NCBI GenBank assembly: GCA_038065395.1
Contig: JBBTRB010000006.1
Span: forward strand, 19,493-83,492
Length of the DNA: 64,000 bases
Source: Patescibacteria group bacterium
GTDB lineage: Bacteria > Patescibacteriota > Minisyncoccia > Phycocordibacterales > PALSA-1337
Direction of reading: 5' to 3'
Shown: positions 2-51,788 of the stretch, in pieces
Layout of the letters: each line of letters starts with the position of its first letter
Position numbering within the stretch: the first letter of the stretch is position 1
Position numbers and translations under genes: made by a program
Notes under the pieces: generated by a model
Database searches by the model: none
What the model saw: only the letters and a program-made list of their open reading frames with translations
Told to the model about the DNA's origin: nothing

Positions 2-1135
2 ATCAAAGTGGTTATTGCTCATGCCCGAGAAAAAACCGATCGCGGACTACCTCGTATCATCGCTGCAGTCATGACCGAATCCAAAGGTCTTCGTCACGGC
101 TACATCACCAATGTCCAAGAAGCTGCCGAGAGTATCCGTAGAGCTGTTGCACTCGCCGAGGAAAAGGTTGGTACAAAAGTCAAAAAAGCTTTTATCGGTA
201 TTGGAGGTATCGGACTTTCGAGTGTCTCGGTATCGAGCTTCATCATGACCTCACGTGCAGATGCCGAGATCACCAGTCTCGACCTTTCTAAGCTCCGCGA
301 ACAGTGCGAAAAAGACCTACCGAAAAGTGCCACCGCCAACCGTCGTATCGTCTACGATATTCCGATCCAATACAAGATCGATGGTGCACCCGCGCTCGGC
401 CAACCCCTCGGACTCATCGGTAACAAGATCGAACAAAAGACTCTCTTCATCACCTGTCTCGACCATCATGTCACCAACCTCATTCACGCCGTCAATCAAG
501 CCGGCATCGAGGTCGAAGACGTCATGGCCGCACCACTTGCCGCTTCGTTCGTCACTCTATCCAAAACCCAAAAGATCGCCGGTTGCGTACTCACCAACAT
601 TGGCGCCGAAACTGTTTCTATTGCCATCTTCGAAAACAGCGTACCTACATCGCTCGAAGTCTTCCCGATCGGTTCTACCGATATCACCAACGACATCGCT
701 CTCGGTATCAAAGTTCCCCTCGAAGAAGCCGAGCAGATCAAGGTCGGTGCTATCACTGGCAGTTCGTATCCTCGCAAAAAACTCGACGAGATCATCTCTG
801 CCCGTGTCTCCGATATGTTTGAGCTCATCGAAGGACATCTCAAGAAGATCGGTCGCAACGGGCTCCTCCCTGCGGGTATTATCCTTGCTGGTGGTGGTTC
901 TGGTATCAACTCCATTGATCTCATGGCAAAGTCGTCTCTCAAGATCCCTGCACGTATCGGATCTATCAGTCCTGATAGCAAGTCACCGACCAAAGACGCT
1001 ATCTGGGCTGTTGCCTATGGCCTCACCGCCTGGGGTATCCATACCGAAGAAGGTCCTGAGATCGACACTTCTCTCCAATTCCTCAAACATGGCTGGAAAA
1101 CTCTCGTTCGTTGGTTCAAACAATTTTTGCCTTAG
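2..1135 (+). CDS. ftsA: Cell division protein FtsA (actin-like ATPase), 5'-truncated at window edge
   Basis: Translation carries an FtsA-like C-terminal region (ILAGGGSGINSIDLMAKSSLKIPARIG) and actin-fold glycine motifs. The frame is open back to position 2. It sits immediately upstream of ftsZ, the classic ftsA-ftsZ order. Confidence 0.85.
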   Translation: MKVVIAHAREKTDRGLPRIIAAVMTESKGLRHGYITNVQEAAESIRRAVALAEEKVGTKVKKAFIGIGGIGLSSVSVSSFIMTSRADAEITSLDLSKLREQCEKDLPKSATANRRIVYDIPIQYKIDGAPALGQPLGLIGNKIEQKTLFITCLDHHVTNLIHAVNQAGIEVEDVMAAPLAASFVTLSKTQKIAGCVLTNIGAETVSIAIFENSVPTSLEVFPIGSTDITNDIALGIKVPLEEAEQIKVGAITGSSYPRKKLDEIISARVSDMFELIEGHLKKIGRNGLLPAGIILAGGGSGINSIDLMAKSSLKIPARIGSISPDSKSPTKDAIWAVAYGLTAWGIHTEEGPEIDTSLQFLKHGWKTLVRWFKQFLP

Positions 1136-1240
1136 AAATAGCAATAACCCACCACAAACCTGTTATTCCTGCAAGTTGTGCCCCTTTTTTCGTGTGATAC
1201 TATACACCCTATCAACCACCGTAACACCGTACACGAAATC

Positions 1241-2473
1241 ATGCCCAACATTACTCCTGACATCGAAGCATTCGCACGTATCAAGGTCCTCGGCGTCGGA
1301 GGCTCTGGTGGCAACGCGGTTAGTCACATGATCGCCTCCAAGGTCAAGGGTGTCGACTTTATCGCCATCAACACAGACGCGCAAGATCTCCATCGATCTC
1401 TGGCCAAGAAACGCATTCATATCGGCAAGAACATTACCCGAGGACTCGGTACTGGTATGAATCCCGATCTCGGTCGTCGTGCCGTCGAAGAGAGCAAGGA
1501 CGAACTCCAAGAGGCCGTCAAAGGCGCCGACATGGTCTTCGTCGCTGGTGGACTCGGTGGAGGAACCTGCAGTGGCGCTAGTCCCCAAGTTGCCCGTACC
1601 GCAAAGGAGCTCGGCTGTCTCACTGTTGCCGTTGTTACCAAACCTTTTTACTTCGAAGGACGTCAGCGTGTACGTATCGCCGAGACCGCTCTCGAAGACC
1701 TCCGCAAAGAAGTAGACGCTATCATCGTCATTCCCAACGACAAACTCCTCTCTGCCATCAACAAAGAAACCACCGTCAAGAACGCCTTCGCCATGTGTGA
1801 CGAGATCCTGCGCCAGGCGGTTGAGGGTATCTCTGACCTGATCACCACTCCTGGACTCATCAATATCGACTTTGCAGATATCCGCACCGTCATGGAGAAC
1901 GCCGGCTCGGCACTCATGGGTATCGGCTCTGCCTCAGGCGACAACCGCGCTATCGACGCCGCCAAGGCCGCTATCAATTCTCCCCTTCTCGATGTGTCGA
2001 TCGCTGGCGCAAAGGGTGTCCTGTTCTCGATCGCTGGTGGCGAAGATCTCACCATGTTCGAGATCCAAGACGCCGCCAAAGTCATCACCGAGTCTATCGA
2101 CCCCGAAGCCAAGATCATCTTCGGTACGGTACGCGACGACAAGCTCAAGAAAAACGAGGTCAAGATCACCGTCATTGCAACCGGCTTCCCTGAAGGTCAG
2201 CTCCCTCAACGGTCCACCCCAACACAGACTCCTGAGCAATCCCAGGCCAATGAATCCAGTATTCTCTCTTTTATGAAAAGCGGCACTGCCGACAAAGGCA
2301 AGATCTTCAACCCTGCACCTGAACCTCGCCGTGACCGTGATGCCGTCATCGCCGAAAAGATCACTGACGTCAAAAAAGACGCCAAACCGATCACTCCTCC
2401 CCCTGCCCAAGAAAGCTCCGACGATGAATGGGGCGCCATACCGGCTTTTTTGAGACGGTCACGACTCAAGTAG
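1241..2473 (+). CDS. ftsZ: Cell division GTPase FtsZ
   Basis: Tubulin signature GVGGSGGNAV, and T7 loop / C-terminal tail typical of FtsZ. ATG at 1241 gives MPNITPDIEAF..; the ORF-track start 1178 is an upstream non-ATG extension. Confidence 0.9.
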   Translation: MPNITPDIEAFARIKVLGVGGSGGNAVSHMIASKVKGVDFIAINTDAQDLHRSLAKKRIHIGKNITRGLGTGMNPDLGRRAVEESKDELQEAVKGADMVFVAGGLGGGTCSGASPQVARTAKELGCLTVAVVTKPFYFEGRQRVRIAETALEDLRKEVDAIIVIPNDKLLSAINKETTVKNAFAMCDEILRQAVEGISDLITTPGLINIDFADIRTVMENAGSALMGIGSASGDNRAIDAAKAAINSPLLDVSIAGAKGVLFSIAGGEDLTMFEIQDAAKVITESIDPEAKIIFGTVRDDKLKKNEVKITVIATGFPEGQLPQRSTPTQTPEQSQANESSILSFMKSGTADKGKIFNPAPEPRRDRDAVIAEKITDVKKDAKPITPPPAQESSDDEWGAIPAFLRRSRLK

Positions 2474-2482
2474 CATTGACTT

Positions 2483-3034
2483 TTATACTGGATCGACTAT
2501 ACTTTTAGTTACCTTGGCCTTCGGGCTCCGAGATTCCCCACCTTTTGGTGGGGTTTCGATTTCCAAGGTTTCTAACAGCAACTTCATGAACATAATCAAA
2601 ACTTTTTGAAAAGTTTTTACATCGAGATGCGACATCTTTCTTATAAGTCTTTTACTACTTATGATGCGTATCTGATCGAGAAGAATTTGTGAGTGTAATC
2701 CTGTACACGTCGTATGAATTCTATATTTCAGATCAAGTATTTTGGTAGTAAGTGGGGCTATGAGCGTCAAATCTTTCCTGATCTTCTTGATAACAAGAAC
2801 TGGCCTCTCGAATGTTTCGGTAGTTCCATCTTGCTCTGAGCCAATATTCACCCCCAACGCACACCACCATAACTCTCTTTCATAGAAAAAGTCATTGAAT
2901 TCTCGGGAATCGATCTGTTCCGCATGATCGCTCCACAATTTGAACTGTTTGATATATATCTCAGACATTAGCGTAACTATACTCAACCGAGATAAAATCC
3001 GTATGAATTTAGGTTCAAGAAACGATAAATTCAA
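2483..3034 (-). CDS. Hypothetical protein (183 aa), no recognisable domain
   Basis: Long ORF opposite to its neighbours that fills the ftsZ-trxB gap. No motif recognised. Confidence 0.35.
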   Translation of the reverse strand: MNLSFLEPKFIRILSRLSIVTLMSEIYIKQFKLWSDHAEQIDSREFNDFFYERELWWCALGVNIGSEQDGTTETFERPVLVIKKIRKDLTLIAPLTTKILDLKYRIHTTCTGLHSQILLDQIRIISSKRLIRKMSHLDVKTFQKVLIMFMKLLLETLEIETPPKGGESRSPKAKVTKSIVDPV

Positions 3035-3050
3035 CGAAAGATGTGCTAAG

Positions 3051-3995
3051 ATGATCCCTATGTCTCATATCTACGATCTTGCGATCATCGGCGGAGGACC
3101 AGGCGGTGCAGCGGCTGGTGTGTATGCATCACGCAAACGTCTCAAGACAGTTTTCATCACAAAAGACTGGCTCGGCCAGAGTAATGTCTCCGAGAAGATC
3201 GAGAACTGGGTCGGTACCATAGCAATATCAGGACTCGAACTCTCTACGAGTCTCGAAAAGCACGTCAAAGCCTACGCCGAAGGGATCATTGATTTCAAAG
3301 AGGGCGAGCTATGTACCCAGATACAAAAGTCAGACACGGAAGATGCCGTCTTCACGATCTCAACTGACAAGGGTTCGTACCAGGCCAAGACGATCCTGAT
3401 CACAAGTGGCAGCAGCAGACGCACACTCGATGTGCCTGGCGCCAAAGAATACGACAACAAAGGTCTGACCTACTGTGCGACCTGCGATGGCCCTCTCTTT
3501 GCCGACCAGGACGTCGTGGTCGTTGGTGGTGGCAATGCCGGATTCGAAAGTGCCGCGCAGCTCCTGGCATACTGCAAGAGTGTCACGCTCCTCTCACGCA
3601 GTGAATTCAAGGCAGACCCGGGCACCGTCGAAAAAGTCCTGAGTAACCCCAAGATGCGTGCCATAACCAATGCACTTCCCAAAGAAGTCCGCGGAGAGAA
3701 GTTCGTCACCTCATTCACCTATACTGACACTGCTTCTGGTACAGATATCACACTTCCAGTCACGGGTGTATTCGTCGAAGTAGGCTCGATCCCCAACAGT
3801 AGTTTCGTCAAAGACATCGTCAAGCTCGACCAATACAACCGTATCCCTGTTGACCCACGTACCCAGATGACTTCTACCCCGGGTATCTGGGCAGCTGGAG
3901 ATGTGACCGACGGACTTTACCATCAGAACAACATCGCAGCCGGAGATGCCGTGAAAGCTCTCGAAGATATCTATCTGTATATCCACGCAAAATAA
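3051..3995 (+). CDS. trxB: Thioredoxin-disulfide reductase-like flavoprotein (TrxB family)
   Basis: FAD-binding GGGPGG at the N-terminus, redox-active CATCDG, and an NAD(P)-binding VVVVGGGNAG. ATG at 3051 (MIPMSHIYDLAIIGGG). Confidence 0.75.
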   Translation: MIPMSHIYDLAIIGGGPGGAAAGVYASRKRLKTVFITKDWLGQSNVSEKIENWVGTIAISGLELSTSLEKHVKAYAEGIIDFKEGELCTQIQKSDTEDAVFTISTDKGSYQAKTILITSGSSRRTLDVPGAKEYDNKGLTYCATCDGPLFADQDVVVVGGGNAGFESAAQLLAYCKSVTLLSRSEFKADPGTVEKVLSNPKMRAITNALPKEVRGEKFVTSFTYTDTASGTDITLPVTGVFVEVGSIPNSSFVKDIVKLDQYNRIPVDPRTQMTSTPGIWAAGDVTDGLYHQNNIAAGDAVKALEDIYLYIHAK

Positions 3996-7315: not shown

Positions 7316-8086
7316 ATGAACATTCGACCTCACGTATCTATCCCCTGTACCCTTATCCTTGGCAGCGTTCTGTTGTTGTGGGTATTGAGTCCAAGGAGAA
7401 GTACTGAACAACGTCCTCTATCGATCGAGGTTGCCTCCTCTTCGGAGAGACCTCATGAGATGCCGACGCCTGAATTCGTTGCACGGCCAGCCATGCAACA
7501 TCCTCTGTTGGTACGATCCGATCATCCTCGGCCCGAGGCACATATTCCCTCTGCCGAAGAAATCCTGGGTTCGTTCACAACACTGCCCGCATCCTTACGT
7601 GACCCGAAGATAGTCAAAGCGATCCAGGAGCATCGAGTATCGAGCTCTCGGATCCTCTCGGCAATGCCAAAAGCGCCTTTGTCCTATGACCCTCCAGAAC
7701 TAAGTGAGGATCCTACTGACGAAGAAATCGCGGCTCGAGATCGTTATGATCTCGAATTCCGAAGCAAGCGTCTCGCTACTGCAGATGACGAGCGTACCTC
7801 ACTCGCACAAGTACAGATCGCTGCTACTGAGGCACTCAACGGTCTGGAAACTACACTCGGTGCCGCTTACCCTGACTACGTCCAGTGGACCATGGCCGAG
7901 AGCATCGCCGCTACTCTGTCATGGCATCTTGAAAGTGAACAAGGGACTCGTTCGGCCGCAGAAAACATCGTCAAGATGGTCTCCCAAGGCCACTCAGTCG
8001 ATGATATCTTCGACCGGATCGAAATCCTCAAACCTCTTCGAGGGACCGAAGTAGTAACGTTCGTCAGTACACGTGTACGACCATGA
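7316..8086 (+). CDS. Hypothetical exported/membrane-anchored protein
   Basis: AGGAG 8 nt upstream of the ATG. Hydrophobic N-terminus (CTLILGSVLLLWVL). A terminator follows. Confidence 0.55.
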   Translation: MNIRPHVSIPCTLILGSVLLLWVLSPRRSTEQRPLSIEVASSSERPHEMPTPEFVARPAMQHPLLVRSDHPRPEAHIPSAEEILGSFTTLPASLRDPKIVKAIQEHRVSSSRILSAMPKAPLSYDPPELSEDPTDEEIAARDRYDLEFRSKRLATADDERTSLAQVQIAATEALNGLETTLGAAYPDYVQWTMAESIAATLSWHLESEQGTRSAAENIVKMVSQGHSVDDIFDRIEILKPLRGTEVVTFVSTRVRP

Positions 8087-8200: not shown

Positions 8201-8289
8201 GGAGAGATGGCTGAGTGGTTTAAGGCAGCGGTTTACTAAACCGCCGTTCCCTCACGGGAACCGTGGGTTCGAATCCCACTCTCTCCGCA
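8201..8289 (+). tRNA. tRNA-Ser (type II, long variable arm); hand-folded anticodon reads ACU
   Basis: 7-bp acceptor GGAGAGA/TCTCTCC, G73 discriminator, and a Ser-type D-loop GCTGAGTGGTTTAAGGC. Anticodon stem GCGGT/ACCGC, loop TTACTAA. Variable arm CGTTCCCTCACGGGAACCG; T-arm GTGGGTTCGAATCCCAC. Confidence 0.8.
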
Positions 8290-8476
8290 GTTGATCTGTA
8301 CCCCATAAAGTGGACACGGGTACACGTTTTCTTTTGTTAGAATTAGAAAATCATACAATGAAGACACCGAGGCTTGAGTCAGGTGGTTACAAATATTAAC
8401 CAGTTGGAAATGATAGCAGAAGACAGGAAAATGCGTCTAAAAATGTTAGAATTATCAAAGAATCGAAAACAAAACT

Positions 8477-11344: not shown

Positions 11345-13085
11345 AGGTGTTGGTGCTTTTTTGTGATTCCATGATCTGGACATACTCTGGTGAGGTCACA
11401 CTGAGCTCAGCATGACTACCCTCTGCGATCACCTCTCCTTCCATGAGCAGAATGATCTTGTCGAACTCTTCTATAGATCGGATCTTTTGGGTCACGGAGA
11501 CCAGAGTGATGTGAGGATACATCGTCTCGATGTTCTTGAGGATCTTGCGTTCGGTAGACTCATCGACGCGTGCGGTGAAGTCATCGAGCAGGATCACCTG
11601 AGGATTGAGTGCGAGCGCGCGAGCCAGCATGATGCGCTGTTTCTGACCCCCAGAGAGAGACGTACCGCGCTCTGACACCATACTCTCGAGACCCTTGGGC
11701 AACGTATGGATGAAGTCACCGAGTTCGGCGGCACGTATCGCCTTGTCAGTATTCTCTGCGCTGACTTTGGAACTAAAGGCGACGTTCTCTCGGAGACTGA
11801 CGTTGAACAACACACTGTCCTGGAAGACCAGTGCCACCTGCGAGTACAGAGTTTCTTTGGAATAATACGAGATCGGATGACCGTCGTAGGTGACCTTACC
11901 TTCATTGAGTGCTGTCAGTCCCATCATCACCTGGAGGAGCTGAGTCTTGCCTGCGGCGGTTGGACCGATGATAGCAGTCTTGGTGCCGGCTTTGATAGCA
12001 AAAGAAACATCATCGAGGATCTTCTTCTCTCCATAGACAAGCGTTGCATGTGAGACCTCGATGTCACCACGGATCTGTGTGCCAGTAACACCGGTATCAG
12101 GTTCATCAGGGAGACTCAAGACTTCCCTGATGCGACTGTATGAGGCCTGAGCTCGAGAGATGATACTCGATACGAAACCGAGCATAATAAAAGGAAAGAT
12201 CAGGATGAATACATAACTATTGAATGCAGCGAAATCTCCGAGTGACAACGTGCCCGTAATGACGAACTTGCCTCCCAAGAGCAATATAACGAGTGATGCC
12301 ATGTTGGAGATCGCTCCGATGGCTGGTATCACCAATGAGAATAATTTCAAAATCTTGAGTCCGGTAGTACGAGCATCGGTGTTGACGGTGTCGAACTTGG
12401 CATGCTCGAGCTTGCCCGAGTCGAAGACACGGATGATGGCCGAGCCGATGATACTCTCGTTCATGATGGTGTTGAATGAGTCGACGAGACTCTGCGTTTT
12501 CTTGAAAAGCGGGCCGAGCTGTTTGAATACAAAGAAGAAGAGCACTCCGACCAATGGCACGATAGTCAACACTCCGAGAGCCAATCTCCAGTCGATATGG
12601 ATGAGGAGCGCCGATGCGCCGATGATAACCACAACCGAAGATATGACGGTCGCCACACCCATCGAAAGAAAGACCTTGATAGCATCGATATCTGAAGTGA
12701 GGTTGGTCAGGAGTTTGGCTGGAGTCTCCTGCTCGAGTCGTGCAAAGGTCATACCCGAGATCTTGTCTGCGAGCTCCTCACGAATAGCGTGTGCGGCTTT
12801 CTCGGAGAGGTATGACTGGAATATTCCCTGAAAATAGGTGAAGGCGAAAATGAGTACAGAGAGGATCAGGAACTGTATATAGAAGGACGAAGCAATACTC
12901 TCCCCTCGTGAATACATGTCGATACCCATCGAAATGTATTTCGGTACCGCCAACCCCAACCCATTACCCACGATGGTTGCCACCGCCAAAAGTGATGTCA
13001 GCAACGCATACTGCCGAAGCATCGAGAACATACTCGGCTGTGACTTTTTGGATTCTGTTTTGGATTCCTGAACGAGTTCTGCCAT
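11334..13085 (-). CDS. ABC transporter, fused permease/ATP-binding exporter subunit (partner of 9578-11344)
   Basis: TM domain plus a nucleotide-binding domain (GPTAAGKTQ, LSGGQKQRIMLARAL, ILLDDFTA). Tandem arrangement typical of heterodimeric exporters. Confidence 0.85.
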   Translation of the reverse strand: MAELVQESKTESKKSQPSMFSMLRQYALLTSLLAVATIVGNGLGLAVPKYISMGIDMYSRGESIASSFYIQFLILSVLIFAFTYFQGIFQSYLSEKAAHAIREELADKISGMTFARLEQETPAKLLTNLTSDIDAIKVFLSMGVATVISSVVVIIGASALLIHIDWRLALGVLTIVPLVGVLFFFVFKQLGPLFKKTQSLVDSFNTIMNESIIGSAIIRVFDSGKLEHAKFDTVNTDARTTGLKILKLFSLVIPAIGAISNMASLVILLLGGKFVITGTLSLGDFAAFNSYVFILIFPFIMLGFVSSIISRAQASYSRIREVLSLPDEPDTGVTGTQIRGDIEVSHATLVYGEKKILDDVSFAIKAGTKTAIIGPTAAGKTQLLQVMMGLTALNEGKVTYDGHPISYYSKETLYSQVALVFQDSVLFNVSLRENVAFSSKVSAENTDKAIRAAELGDFIHTLPKGLESMVSERGTSLSGGQKQRIMLARALALNPQVILLDDFTARVDESTERKILKNIETMYPHITLVSVTQKIRSIEEFDKIILLMEGEVIAEGSHAELSVTSPEYVQIMESQKSTNTYEN

Positions 13086-13155
13086 ATAATTGAGCTTTTC
13101 AAGGTAACACAGAAAGCGCGGTTTGGAAAGTCGGTTTCCTGATTCCTATTCACTG

Positions 13156-13290
13156 CGGAGAGAGGGAGATTCGAGTCCTACAGACTCTGTACAGGTTTCA
13201 CATTTTCTCATCCTCGACAAGCTCGGACTCGAAAATATGTTCAACCTTTTCGAATCCCTCACGCAACGTGCTCAAGCACGTTGCTTCTCC
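13156..13290 (-). ncRNA. tRNA-Ser-derived tRNA-like element, copy 1, downstream of tRNA-Ser(CGA)
   Basis: Begins GGAGAAG (partial match to the tRNA 5' acceptor strand). Palindromic hairpin GCAACGTGC-TTGA-GCACGTTGC, then GTGAGGGATTCGAAAAGGTTGAACAT. Ends GAAACCTGTACAGAGTCTGTAGGAC-TCGAATCTCCCTCTCTCC-G-CA, an exact copy of the T-loop/acceptor 3' end of the adjacent tRNA. Confidence 0.5.
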
Positions 13291-13325
13291 TTGTTCACGA
13301 AATCGCAAGCGATTTCAGTTCACTG

Positions 13326-13412
13326 CGGAGAGAGGGAGATTCGAACTCCCGAGGAACTTTCGCCCCTGCCACTTTTCGAAAGTGGTGCATTCAACCACTC
13401 TGCCATCTCTCC
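13326..13412 (-). tRNA. tRNA-Ser(CGA)
   Basis: Minus-strand cloverleaf: acceptor GGAGAGA/TCTCTCC, anticodon stem CCACT/AGTGG with loop TTCGAAA, long variable arm, T-arm GGGAGTTCGAATCTCCC, G73. Confidence 0.85.
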
Positions 13413-13567
13413 GTGTTGTATACTCGCAAGCAAGGTCCGACCTCGCTATTGAGCCCTATTACCCTACCATCTTTTGGGTATATCTGTAAAAAGGGGTGAC
13501 CTGCCAGACATATTCTCAAATCGATAGTCTTATGTTATATTTGGTTTTACCAAAACAGGTATTTTGG

Positions 13568-51104: not shown

Positions 51105-51193
51105 GGAGGGTTCGCATAGTGGTCTAGTGCACCACCTTGGAAAGGTGGCATACCTTAACGGGTATCGAGAGTTCGAATCTCTCACCCTCCGCA
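51105..51193 (+). tRNA. tRNA-Ser(GGA)
   Basis: Acceptor GGAGGGT/ACCCTCC, G73. Anticodon stem CCACC/GGTGG with loop TTGGAAA. Long variable arm; T-arm GAGAGTTCGAATCTCTC. Confidence 0.85.
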
Positions 51194-51218
51194 ACGAACG
51201 AATGAAATGAGTGAGTAA

Positions 51219-51361
51219 GGAGGGTAGCAAAGCGCCTGCGCGCTTTGCGTGAGAGATTCGAAAAGGTTGAGCATGTCGCAACAAGTCCTGAGCCTTTCGA
51301 AGGACGAAGTGAGACGCGAAACCTGTACAGAGTCTGTAAGACTCGAATCTCTCACCCTCCG
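51219..51361 (+). ncRNA. tRNA-Ser-derived tRNA-like element, copy 2, downstream of tRNA-Ser(GGA)
   Basis: Starts with GGAGGGT (exact 5' acceptor strand of the adjacent tRNA). Hairpin GCAAAGCGC-CTGC-GCGCTTTGC, then GTGAGAGATTCGAAAAGGTTGAGCAT. Ends GAAACCTGTACAGAGTCTGTAAGAC-TCGAATCTCTC-ACCCTCC-G-CA. About 70% identical to copy 1 in the shared internal segments. Confidence 0.5.
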
Positions 51362-51386
51362 CATTAAAATACGCTATACTACACCC

Positions 51387-51788
51387 ATGAAAAAATACAT
51401 CACCATCATCCTTAAAGTAGTTTTTAGCCTTATCCTGCTCATGCCGATCCTGGGTATGACAGGCATCTTCCCTGACCCGACAGCAGACATGTACAACACT
51501 CCTGCGGCATTTGCCTTCATTGAGATGCTCATAGCCGCAGGATATATCAACATCATCATGGGCGTTGTTTCTTTGATCTCCCTGATCTTCCTCTGGACAC
51601 GTCGCACTGCCGCAGCAGCACTCCTCATGATACCGATCACGCTCAACATCGTCAGTTTCCATGCACTCATCGACGGTGGACCGTTCACCAGTGGCGCCCT
51701 CATGGGAAATGTATTCTTCTTGATCAATATTTACTTCCTCTGGCAAAACAAGGAGGTATACAAAACTCTGTTGGAAAAGAGAGGTTAG
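51387..51788 (+). CDS. Hypothetical membrane protein
   Basis: ATG at 51387 (MKKYITIILKVVFSLILLMPILG), four TM helices. The ORF-track 5' extension back to 51249 overlaps the tRNA-like element and is unlikely to be translated. Confidence 0.5.
   Translation: MKKYITIILKVVFSLILLMPILGMTGIFPDPTADMYNTPAAFAFIEMLIAAGYINIIMGVVSLISLIFLWTRRTAAAALLMIPITLNIVSFHALIDGGPFTSGALMGNVFFLINIYFLWQNKEVYKTLLEKRG

Follow-up and report, generated by a model that had tools for sequence, protein, structure and literature searches.

Gene-less, strongly folded elements built around the 3′ ends of neighbouring tRNA genes in Patescibacteria

Introduction

The DNA considered here is a stretch of 64,000 nucleotides from a Patescibacteria group bacterium (GenBank assembly GCA_038065395.1, contig JBBTRB010000006.1, positions 19,493 to 83,492), which we refer to as the window in the following. 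The contig, 242 kb long, comes from Hainich groundwater. The closest protein relatives of the organism are found in Parcubacteria/Paceibacterota, and the neighbouring genes in the window are housekeeping genes (gyrB, pheS, tsf, rpsB, prfA, eno, lepA, murJ, nrdAB, groESL and rnj). Downstream of two of the six tRNA genes of the window, those for tRNA-Ser(CGA) and tRNA-Ser(GGA), lies a highly folded element of about 135 bases that contains no gene and ends 27–70 nt upstream of a co-oriented gene. The two copies belong to a real, widespread and strongly structured family in bacteria of the Candidate Phyla Radiation (CPR), of which we found about 35 copies. This family is probably undescribed so far, as neither Rfam 15 nor the searchable literature, queried with core strings and with topics around CPR, tRNA and integrases, yielded an account of it. 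In the following, we describe its anatomy, fold, distribution and turnover, and discuss what it may be.

Anatomy of the two copies

The elements are composed of repeated tRNA-derived segments and a core of their own. We use S for the 3′ half of the tRNA, from T55 to N73 plus 1–7 nt, A for the reverse complement of S, and S′ for a second S. On the tRNA strand, the order in the family from 5′ to 3′ is the tRNA with S, a spacer, A, which is split by a hairpin (H1), a core with a three-way junction, and S′ (Table 1). The spacer is either a conserved loop (loop 1, ACGAACGAAGTGAG...) or a terminator-like hairpin, and H1, with the consensus GCAAAGCGC-CTGC-GCGCTTTGC, interrupts A exactly at the boundary between acceptor and T-stem. 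The core starts with a GAAA junction, followed by helix P3 (AGGTT/AACCT), which encloses a tandem GA/GA internal loop and a variable hairpin (P4), by a GTACA junction and by the hairpin P5 (GAGTCT-GTA-AGACTC), on which S′ is stacked directly.

In copy 1, S and S′ form a direct repeat of 26 nt (TCGAATCTCCCTCTCTCCGCAGTGAA, at 13344-13319 and 13174-13149), longer than stated in a first-pass annotation of the window, and a local hairpin (GAAATCGC-TT-GCGATTTC, 13316-13299) occupies the position of the loop seen in most members. Copy 2, which extends over 51219-51361, has a direct repeat of 21 nt (51173-51193 and 51343-51363). The core strings of copy 1 are GTGAGGGATTCGAAAAGGTTGAACAT ... GAAACCTGTACAGAGTCTGTAGGAC, and its terminal string is TCGAATCTCCCTCTCTCCGCA; each core string occurs exactly twice in the window, compared with 0.00–0.05 occurrences expected from shuffles. 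The first-pass annotation, made from the letters of the window, had proposed a real, structured and conserved unit whose stems covary and whose ends derive from the tRNA of the respective locus. This description holds, as do all of its parts when re-read in the sequence, among them the acceptor match of copy 2, which is exact over 7 nt (GGAGGGT), and GGAGAAG at 13290-13284 in copy 1. It had also dismissed the open reading frames (ORFs) 13123-13452(+), 13268-13489(+), 13281-13499(+) and 51182-51364(-) as artefacts, almost certainly rightly; they appear in a mechanical ORF list without support. A public gene call of 171 aa (51273-51788, +) likewise begins inside copy 2; its true start is likely the ATG at 51388.

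Table 1. Features of the two window copies and of further modules in related loci (L numbers). Positions without a locus name refer to the window.
Feature	Position	Strand	Basis
tRNA-Ser(CGA), intact	13325..13412	(-)	ARAGORN; Rfam tRNA 56.9 bits
S of copy 1 (T55 to N73, plus CAGTGAA)	13344-13319	(-)	repeat comparison
Spacer of copy 1	13291..13324	(-)	sequence, family comparison
Arm A of copy 1, inverted copy of S	13250..13290	(-)	sequence, fold, H1 covariation
Acceptor complement of copy 1, GGAGAAG	13290-13284	(-)	sequence
H1 of copy 1, perfect hairpin GCAACGTGC-TTGA-GCACGTTGC	13284-13263	(-)	sequence
T-stem/T-loop complement of copy 1, GAGGGATTCGA	13260-13250	(-)	sequence
Three-way-junction core of copy 1	13175..13249	(-)	fold and covariation
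P3 of copy 1, AGGTT/AACCT	13247-13243 with 13197-13193	(-)	fold
P4 of copy 1, variable hairpin	13240-13200	(-)	fold
GTACA junction of copy 1	13192-13188	(-)	fold
P5 of copy 1, GAGTCT-GTA-GGACTC; last two bases common to S′	13187-13173	(-)	fold
S′ of copy 1, exact 26-nt copy of tRNA 3′ half and 7 trailer bases	13149..13174	(-)	repeat
N73-equivalent G of copy 1 S′	13156	(-)	sequence
tRNA-Ser(GGA), intact	51105..51192	(+)	ARAGORN, Rfam
S of copy 2	51173-51193	(+)	repeat comparison
Spacer of copy 2, ACGAACGAATGAAATGAGTGAGTAA, the loop-1 motif of the family	51194..51218	(+)	same motif behind other tRNAs
Arm A of copy 2	51219..51261	(+)	sequence, fold
GGAGGGT of copy 2	51219-51225	(+)	sequence
H1 of copy 2, GCAAAGCGC-CTGC-GCGCTTTGC	51227-51248	(+)	identical to H1 of L050 and L053
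T-stem/T-loop complement of copy 2, GAGAGATTCGA	51251-51261	(+)	sequence
Core of copy 2	51262..51342	(+)	sequence, fold, covariation
P3 of copy 2	51264-51268 with 51320-51324	(+)	fold
P4 of copy 2	51271-51317	(+)	fold
GTACA of copy 2	51325-51329	(+)	fold
P5 of copy 2, GAGTCT-GTA-AGACTC	51330-51344	(+)	fold
S′ of copy 2, exact 21-nt copy of tRNA-Ser(GGA) 3′ half	51343..51363	(+)	repeat
N73-equivalent G of copy 2 S′	51361	(+)	sequence
Second element type	L032:975-1105	(-)	
Second element type, behind tRNA-Lys	L038:8030-8098	(-)	
Second element type, behind tRNA-Leu(TAA)	L045:2040-2110	(+)	
Third module	L038:7190-7250	(-)	
Third module	L044:1-60	(+)	
Third module, inside a copy	L037, copy 2214-2424		
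Third module	L045:2370-2420	(+)	
Unit with partial tRNA-Ser end	L047:2510-2620	(-)	
Unit with partial tRNA-Ser end	L055:610-716	(+)	
Unit with partial tRNA-Ser end	L041:4403-4475	(+)	

Fold and covariation

Both window copies share one branched fold, with z-scores of -5.9 and -6.6 when folded as RNA and of -5.5 and -6.2 when folded as DNA. Across 30 copies, standard pairs are found in 92.9% of the cells, compared with 67.6% after shuffling and 28–46% in controls with slid partners, and compensatory changes occur at 38 of the 43 pairs, in all six helices; none of 500 shuffles reaches any of these measures. P5 covaries once diverged copies are added (GACCCT/AGGGTC in L052, GAAGCT/AGCTTC in L062), and the weakest helix is the acceptor-like stem, which is 77% paired. 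The unpaired bases of the GAAA and GUACA junctions, of the GUA triloop and of the tandem GA between P3 and P4 are invariant. The first-pass annotation had taken the end of the element for a re-used T-arm, but in S′ the T-loop bases pair with GAGrGATTCGA, a complement that lies upstream, and the whole 3′ half is part of a long helix. A T-loop can therefore not form, and the apparent tRNA mimicry amounts to this long helix and has no L-shape.

Distribution of the family

A covariance model trained on 18 copies finds only the two copies (128 and 122 bits) when the whole window is scanned with filters off, the next best match scoring 13.7 bits. Two copies had been taken as the mark of a lineage-specific element, but the family proves to be widespread in CPR bacteria. 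When one genome per GTDB species was scanned for exact matches to an 18-mer, true copies were found only in metagenome-assembled genomes (MAGs) of Saccharibacteria and Paceibacterota, while six other matches lie in coding DNA and are due to chance. A 20-mer scan of the Joint Genome Institute (JGI) metagenomes led to 26 further loci, and the covariance model recognizes 34 copies in the fetched loci, including diverged copies without the scan word. Across the family, the elements measure about 115–190 bp.

Searches among viruses and plasmids gave no copies: the 18- and 19-mer core words have no match in IMG/VR, where a 16-mer has 18 matches that are due to chance judging by their context, and blastn with copy 2 found no match among INPHARED phages and PLSDB plasmids. 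In Rfam, scanned at gathering and at permissive thresholds with the window and 11 loci, only real tRNAs and one sub-threshold model were found, much as the first-pass annotation had expected. The latter, sX4 (RF02223), reaches 30.3 bits against a gathering score of 70 and aligns mainly over the real tRNA-Ser, so that we reject it as an identity. It is the only non-tRNA model to align because it combines a tRNA-Ser with a downstream segment that pairs with the 3′ strand of the T-stem. As sX4 is a small RNA of Xanthomonas, the arrangement of a tRNA end with an inverted copy may exist outside the CPR.

Relation to the neighbouring tRNA

The copies are always downstream of and co-oriented with a tRNA (for copies without one, see below). 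The host tRNAs represent 15 isoacceptors for nine amino acids: Gly-CCC; Tyr-GTA; Glu-CTC; Leu-TAA, -TAG and -GAG; Pro-GGG; Ser-TGA, -GCT, -ACT, -GGA and -CGA; Val-TAC; His-GTG; and Arg-TCT. The link to tRNA-Ser proposed earlier thus does not extend to the family, which removes the idea of a decoy for seryl-tRNA synthetase (SerRS). Every copy bears the sequence of its own neighbour, including the T-loop variants TTCAAAT, TTCGATT and TTCGAGT, and A changes in step. The direct repeat is 20–34 nt long in related loci and starts at T55 in most copies, and at G57 in L032 unit 2, L038:8577 and L044:701. Concerning the tRNA ends themselves, N73 is followed by CA in about 85% of the CPR tRNA genes in the loci, and an encoded CCA is absent from most.

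The origin of A can be judged at informative positions, i.e. at a wobble or mismatch in the tRNA's own stems. At five of six such positions, A is the Watson-Crick complement of the tRNA 3′ strand and not a copy of the 5′ strand; it therefore represents an inverted repeat of S and not a duplicated 5′ half of the tRNA. Moreover, in at least 10 of 19 copies the complementarity of A continues into the proximal trailer, which belongs to the real tRNA, and not into the distal one after S′. The extended pairing comprises 27 bp in L058, at least 16 bp in L044 and 15 bp in L033, and is also found in L039, L038 and L042. This ties A to the proximal S, as expected if S and its trailer belong to the element.

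Turnover and spread

A range of features speaks for mobility or turnover of the elements. Several loci carry arrays, with two identical units in L022, three units in L032, the middle one with an unrelated core, and two units behind tRNA-Leu(TAA) in L038. Within these arrays, the S′ farthest from the tRNA is the truncated one. More generally, S′ is hybrid, truncated or decayed while A still matches S in at least seven copies (L022#2, L032#3, L037, L039, L044, L055 and L062), which would be expected of a displaced, useless 3′ half.

The modules of the elements are shared across tRNA types. The nearest relatives of H1 and core modules sit behind other tRNAs in other contigs, H1 and core of one copy have different nearest partners, and the H1 of window copy 2 is identical to those of L053 (Val-TAC) and L050. 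The element of L055 is the same as that of L041, but switches to a tRNA-His-like end after TCGAATCCCG. L051 and L056, which lie on one contig, are 100% identical over 175 nt, a stretch that begins with the final 4 nt of tRNA-His and extends 2 nt past S′, and L056 has no tRNA. In L041, L030 and L055, which represent three genomes, the elements are 97.5–99.5% identical, compared with 87–89% for the flanking genes, and the DNA between S′ and the shared downstream gene is different in each. Likewise, the orthologous tRNA-Leu(TAA) bears different element types in four genomes (L034, L040, L045 and L038). In L038, a segment of 560 nt with an 87-aa ORF is situated between S with its trailer and a repeated GCACAAATGA that precedes A. 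This ORF (7448-7711, -) lies behind the trailer of tRNA-Leu(TAG), is flanked by the 10-nt repeat GCACAAATGA, has no Pfam match and is possibly cargo. In relatives of the window organism, finally, tRNA-Ser(CGA) is followed by a diverged copy in L062, L063, L070 and L071 and by none in L061. The latter retains GTGACTGAACGAA, the first half of loop 1, and is best read as the product of a 161-nt deletion.

We also examined the neighbourhood for proteins that could act on the elements. An all-against-all clustering of 528 neighbouring ORFs returned only syntenic housekeeping families such as LepA, RbfA, L19 and RluD, and Pfam scans of the ORFs beside tRNA-less copies and of the cargo ORF of L038 revealed no recombinase. 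In the available sequence around L042, L056, L050 and L028, there is no distant tRNA copy that would bound a large island. The tRNA-less copy of L042 has neighbours of its own (676-3413, +), namely a DUF5677 protein and a CI-repressor-like helix-turn-helix protein upstream and a DUF2726 protein downstream, which may belong to a larger adjoining island.

Comparison with known systems

In the way it works, the family most resembles a tRNA-targeting integrative element of which only the attachment region is left, while its fold is reminiscent of recombination sites that act as hairpins. Like tRNA-targeting integrative elements, cis-mobilizable elements (CIMEs) and tycheposon-type arrays, it has a direct repeat that starts in the T-loop, leaves the tRNA intact and has variable cargo beside the repeat; it accretes in tandem, with older and shorter repeats farther from the tRNA, and appears to differ in presence among relatives. 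The mark of such an element, inserted DNA flanked by a direct repeat of the tRNA 3′ segment beside an intact tRNA, is present in both window copies and in related loci. Unlike these, however, the family is only 115–190 bp long, comes without integrase or any other gene, possesses a hairpin-split inverted copy of the attachment site and a conserved three-way junction, and occupies no fewer than 15 different tRNAs, while integrases of one family as a rule stay with a single target. We therefore reject a classical integrative element, given that there is no ORF inside the elements, no recurrent neighbour protein and no integrase. The first-pass annotation had considered that the elements might always be flanked by integrases and thus be plain att scars; no integrase lies near the copies.

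The second likeness is to sites that are recombined as folded single strands, namely integron attC sites and the forked attP(+) hairpin of CTX-phi, which is used by XerCD. In these as in the family, two inverted copies of the site lie about 90 nt apart and the fold rebuilds a duplex site, structure is conserved beyond stem sequence, side branches or extrahelical features occur, and the units are gene-less and form arrays. The predicted DNA and RNA folds and the covariation agree with such a site. By contrast to attC, the family derives its stems from tRNAs, and it is the apical junction that is conserved. Moreover, action as single-stranded DNA is putative, and no link to IntI, Xer or another recombinase, no conserved R/L boxes and no dif-like core were identified in the family.

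Miniature inverted-repeat transposable elements (MITEs) and elements of the repetitive extragenic palindrome (REP) type, such as Correia, RUP and the palindrome-associated transposable elements (PATEs) of IS200/IS605, are likewise short, gene-less, intergenic and multi-copy, with decaying copies and near-perfect Watson-Crick hairpins. In the family, however, the 'terminal repeats' are copies of the neighbouring tRNA that differ by locus, and position and orientation behind tRNAs are strict. A MITE identity was rejected on account of these tRNA-specific inverted arms, the length of the repeat, which varies from 20 to 26 nt and excludes a fixed target duplication, and the failure to find a parent or transposase in the sequences searched. 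The ends of the element can pair in an acceptor-like manner with the neighbour's discriminator base, as in tRNA-like RNAs (the tRNA domain of transfer-messenger RNA (tmRNA), viral tRNA-like structures, mascRNA and YrlA), but T-loop, D-arm and anticodon analogues are missing and the acceptor stem is poorly kept. Only genuine tRNAs score as tRNAs (at least 29 bits with RF00005, or by ARAGORN), a permissive scan of 13050-13500 gave no tRNA match on the element, and ARAGORN found no tmRNA in the window or the loci.

Other candidates failed as well. A PATE of IS200/IS605 or a TnpB/IscB guide RNA would call for a neighbouring tnpA, tnpB or iscB, none of which was found, or for paired LE/RE hairpins beside a short fixed target motif; H1 and P5 are unrelated hairpins, and the flanks are tRNA ends rather than a 4-5-nt motif. 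There is no reverse transcriptase gene beside any copy, as a retron non-coding RNA would have, and for an IS110 bridge RNA or a group II intron the partner gene is missing and size or architecture are wrong. The junction strands (GAAA, GUACA, none) are unlike the core of a hammerhead, and neither twister nor other small ribozymes have an Rfam match.

Proposed mechanism

Based on these observations, we propose that the family represents non-autonomous integrative mini-elements, which use the tRNA from the T-loop to the 3′ end as their attachment site and act via a single-stranded fold; we assign this reading a probability of about 0.5. It corresponds to the minimal cis-mobilisable integrative element among the three possibilities of the first-pass annotation, whose other two, a tRNA paralog and a SerRS decoy, we reject. 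The moving unit would comprise S, the trailer or loop 1, A with H1, and the three-way-junction core. Its sense single strand, putatively as DNA rather than RNA, would fold into a dumbbell, in which S pairs with A and the antitrailer, where present, with the trailer. According to the predicted fold of the permuted unit, one end of the dumbbell would be the trailer/antitrailer hairpin and the other the three-way junction. The S/A duplex would thereby rebuild the tRNA gene from T55 to its 3′ end, stacked on P5 and capped by the conserved junction. A putative trans-acting recombinase could then exchange strands at T54|T55, or homologous recombination could proceed via the 20–26 identical nucleotides. 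After insertion, the S of the element would complete the tRNA gene, and the original 3′ half would be shifted downstream as S′. Such a model would explain why the tRNA is intact, why the repeat begins at T55 in most copies, why A matches the proximal trailer and why S′ decays, as well as arrays with the oldest repeat farthest from the tRNA and cargo between trailer and A.

A number of observations weigh against this proposal. There is no clean empty site, since L061 retains half of loop 1 and is not a pristine target. Window copy 1 and the copy of L062 look orthologous, given their related H1, and compensatory changes have preserved their helices over a protein divergence of about 22%, a hint of selection in situ. 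The elements contain no gene for a recombinase, transposase or reverse transcriptase and have none as a recurrent neighbour; an autonomous parent did not turn up, and IMG/VR, INPHARED and PLSDB yielded no copy. The tRNA-less copies in L056 and L042 keep a full S′ but only the last 4–10 nt of S, which fits a crossover at the acceptor end rather than in the T-loop and weakens the T-loop version of the model. Furthermore, the model offers no account of how A comes to match again after a change of tRNA. Lastly, some traits are those of an RNA: conserved unpaired junction bases are typical of functional RNAs, the loop motifs are confined to or enriched on the sense strand (GCGNAGC 12 times on the top versus 0 times on the bottom strand, with 1.4 expected; CGAAG 21 versus 5 times), and the sense strand gives the better RNA fold in 25 of the 30 copies, by 4 kcal/mol on average. 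The motifs GCGAAGC, GAGCGAAGCGA and ACGAAGT are abundant in the spacers and P4 loops of most copies, on the sense strand only (for example L032:1255-1270(-), L036:1905-1925(+) and L041:4450-4465(+)); on the other hand, GNA-triloop mini-hairpins of the GCGAAGC type are exceptionally stable in single-stranded DNA, which counts in favour of DNA.

The problem of re-matching would be solved if the elements were self-addressed mobile hairpins, in which the A arms act as an internal guide that pairs with the 3′ half of the occupied tRNA and are rewritten from the target upon a move to a new tRNA. Rewriting might occur by heteroduplex correction or templated copying, and one conserved core, with a catalytic or recognition role, could then conceivably colonise any tRNA gene via the universal T-loop. 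We consider this extension improbable; if true, the small genomes of the CPR would harbour a new class of nucleic-acid-guided integration to which no protein gene is linked.

Alternative explanations

The traits of an RNA raise the possibility that the element is a structured non-coding RNA, co-transcribed with the tRNA, in which A pairs with S′ to form a long branched helix with a protein-binding junction or a role in processing of tRNA or transcript. RNase P/Z-type cleavage might set it free, or it might stay in place as a structured 3′ external spacer. Six covarying helices with invariant junction and loop bases, the strand-specific motifs and better sense fold, and the compensatory changes in H1 and P5 between window copy 1 and L062 all fit this explanation, and a promoter/terminator scan of both window loci found neither between tRNA and element. 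Nevertheless, it would still need a separate mobility mechanism for the 15 tRNA hosts, the arrays, the hybrids and the sharing of modules. The pairing partner S′ is broken in at least seven copies with intact A, the acceptor-like stem is incompletely paired, six copies carry a terminator-like A-run, hairpin and T-run between the tRNA and A, only some tRNAs per genome bear an element, as the window illustrates, and Rfam has no match. Moreover, G.U accounts for only about 3% of pairs on either strand, without strand bias: with 42 G.U versus 26 A.C pairs (p=0.07), and 21 versus 14 outside the tRNA-derived helices, the frequency of G.U does not exceed that expected from A.C for the other strand, which may lean towards DNA. 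As predicted DNA folds, both strands are equally good. On balance, we regard a functional RNA as possible, if rather doubtful.

The remaining explanations fare worse against the same evidence. Integrases that target tRNA genes classically leave behind a direct repeat spanning T-loop to 3′ end, and the elements could accordingly be passive scars of deleted larger islands or prophages in tRNA genes, with the core as the attP-proximal arm of one island family. The variable cargo after S′ in L041 and L030, the phage-like genes, with a CI-type repressor, upstream of the L042 copy, and the partial tRNA ends that recur in arrays would agree with this. Random deletions, however, would hardly leave the same architecture of about 130–170 nt in dozens of loci, with all helices intact and with S and trailer exactly complementary to antitrailer and A, and the searches of genomes, viral contigs, phages and plasmids brought up no full-length parent that contains the core, which makes scars a quite remote explanation. 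Could the element instead be a cis-regulatory leader or processing signal of the gene that follows, acting as tRNA-like punctuation between tRNA and mRNA? Both window copies do precede co-oriented genes, and those of L057 and L062 precede ABC-transporter genes. However, 18 copies are followed by an ORF in the same orientation and 9 by one in the opposite orientation, which reflects the ordinary co-orientation of neighbours and does not indicate a leader function; the downstream genes are unrelated among loci, and terminators follow S′ in several copies. We hold this to be very unlikely. A degenerate tRNA paralog that arose by tandem duplication and T-loop insertion, or a decoy for SerRS or a modification enzyme, had been suggested by the first-pass annotation, and it is true that the 7-nt acceptor strand and GAGAG of copy 2 equal the tRNA's own 5′ strands and that the position of H1 coincides exactly with the point at which the tRNA body departs from the acceptor/T helix. 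This is almost certainly not the answer: the same core stands behind nine tRNA identities, so that independent duplications are impossible as its origin, and the family is not restricted to Ser. At five of six informative sites, A agrees with the complement of S and not with the tRNA 5′ strands, the acceptor stem is only 77% paired, the T-loop bases are engaged in pairing, and tRNA and tmRNA detectors give the element no score.

Significance

CPR bacteria, or Patescibacteria, account for a large part of bacterial diversity; their genomes are tiny and are thought to be poor in mobile elements. If the family is indeed mobile, it would represent a new way in which tRNA genes serve as landing sites and would mark the exchange of DNA among Saccharibacteria and Paceibacterota, and because it rebuilds its target as a hairpin with a conserved three-way junction, it would offer a compact, testable substrate for finding an enzyme that recognizes the T-loop. 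If it functions as RNA, it would be a new, widespread and strongly covarying RNA family that is missing from Rfam. In practical terms, the elements give rise to spurious ORF calls, such as the 171-aa gene across copy 2, and could mislead the annotation of tRNAs and att sites in CPR MAGs.

Further modules

Several other modules were noticed next to tRNA genes. A tRNA-Ser with the unusual anticodon ACT is found in the window (8201-8330, +) as well as in L057 and L058, with the motif GATCTGTACCCCATAAAGTGGACACGGGTAC directly after it. The same motif also occurs after tRNA-Leu(CAA) in L059 and after S′ in L030 and L053, and looks like a CPR-wide tRNA-trailer module. A second element type consists of an inverted tRNA 3′ half, with or without H1, followed by a direct copy, and has an unrelated core that begins with ATCGAACGGCGGAG. 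The end of a third module, GGGGTCGCGGAAATTTT...CTGTGACC, falls directly on T-loop bases (GTGACC|GAGTCC...), and this module can replace the right half of the core described above (type A; L038:8577-8725) or nest in P4. Finally, short units that end in a partial tRNA-Ser 3′ end (..CTCCGCA or ..CTGCCGCA) form heterogeneous arrays, of which the one in L055 is without any tRNA-Ser.

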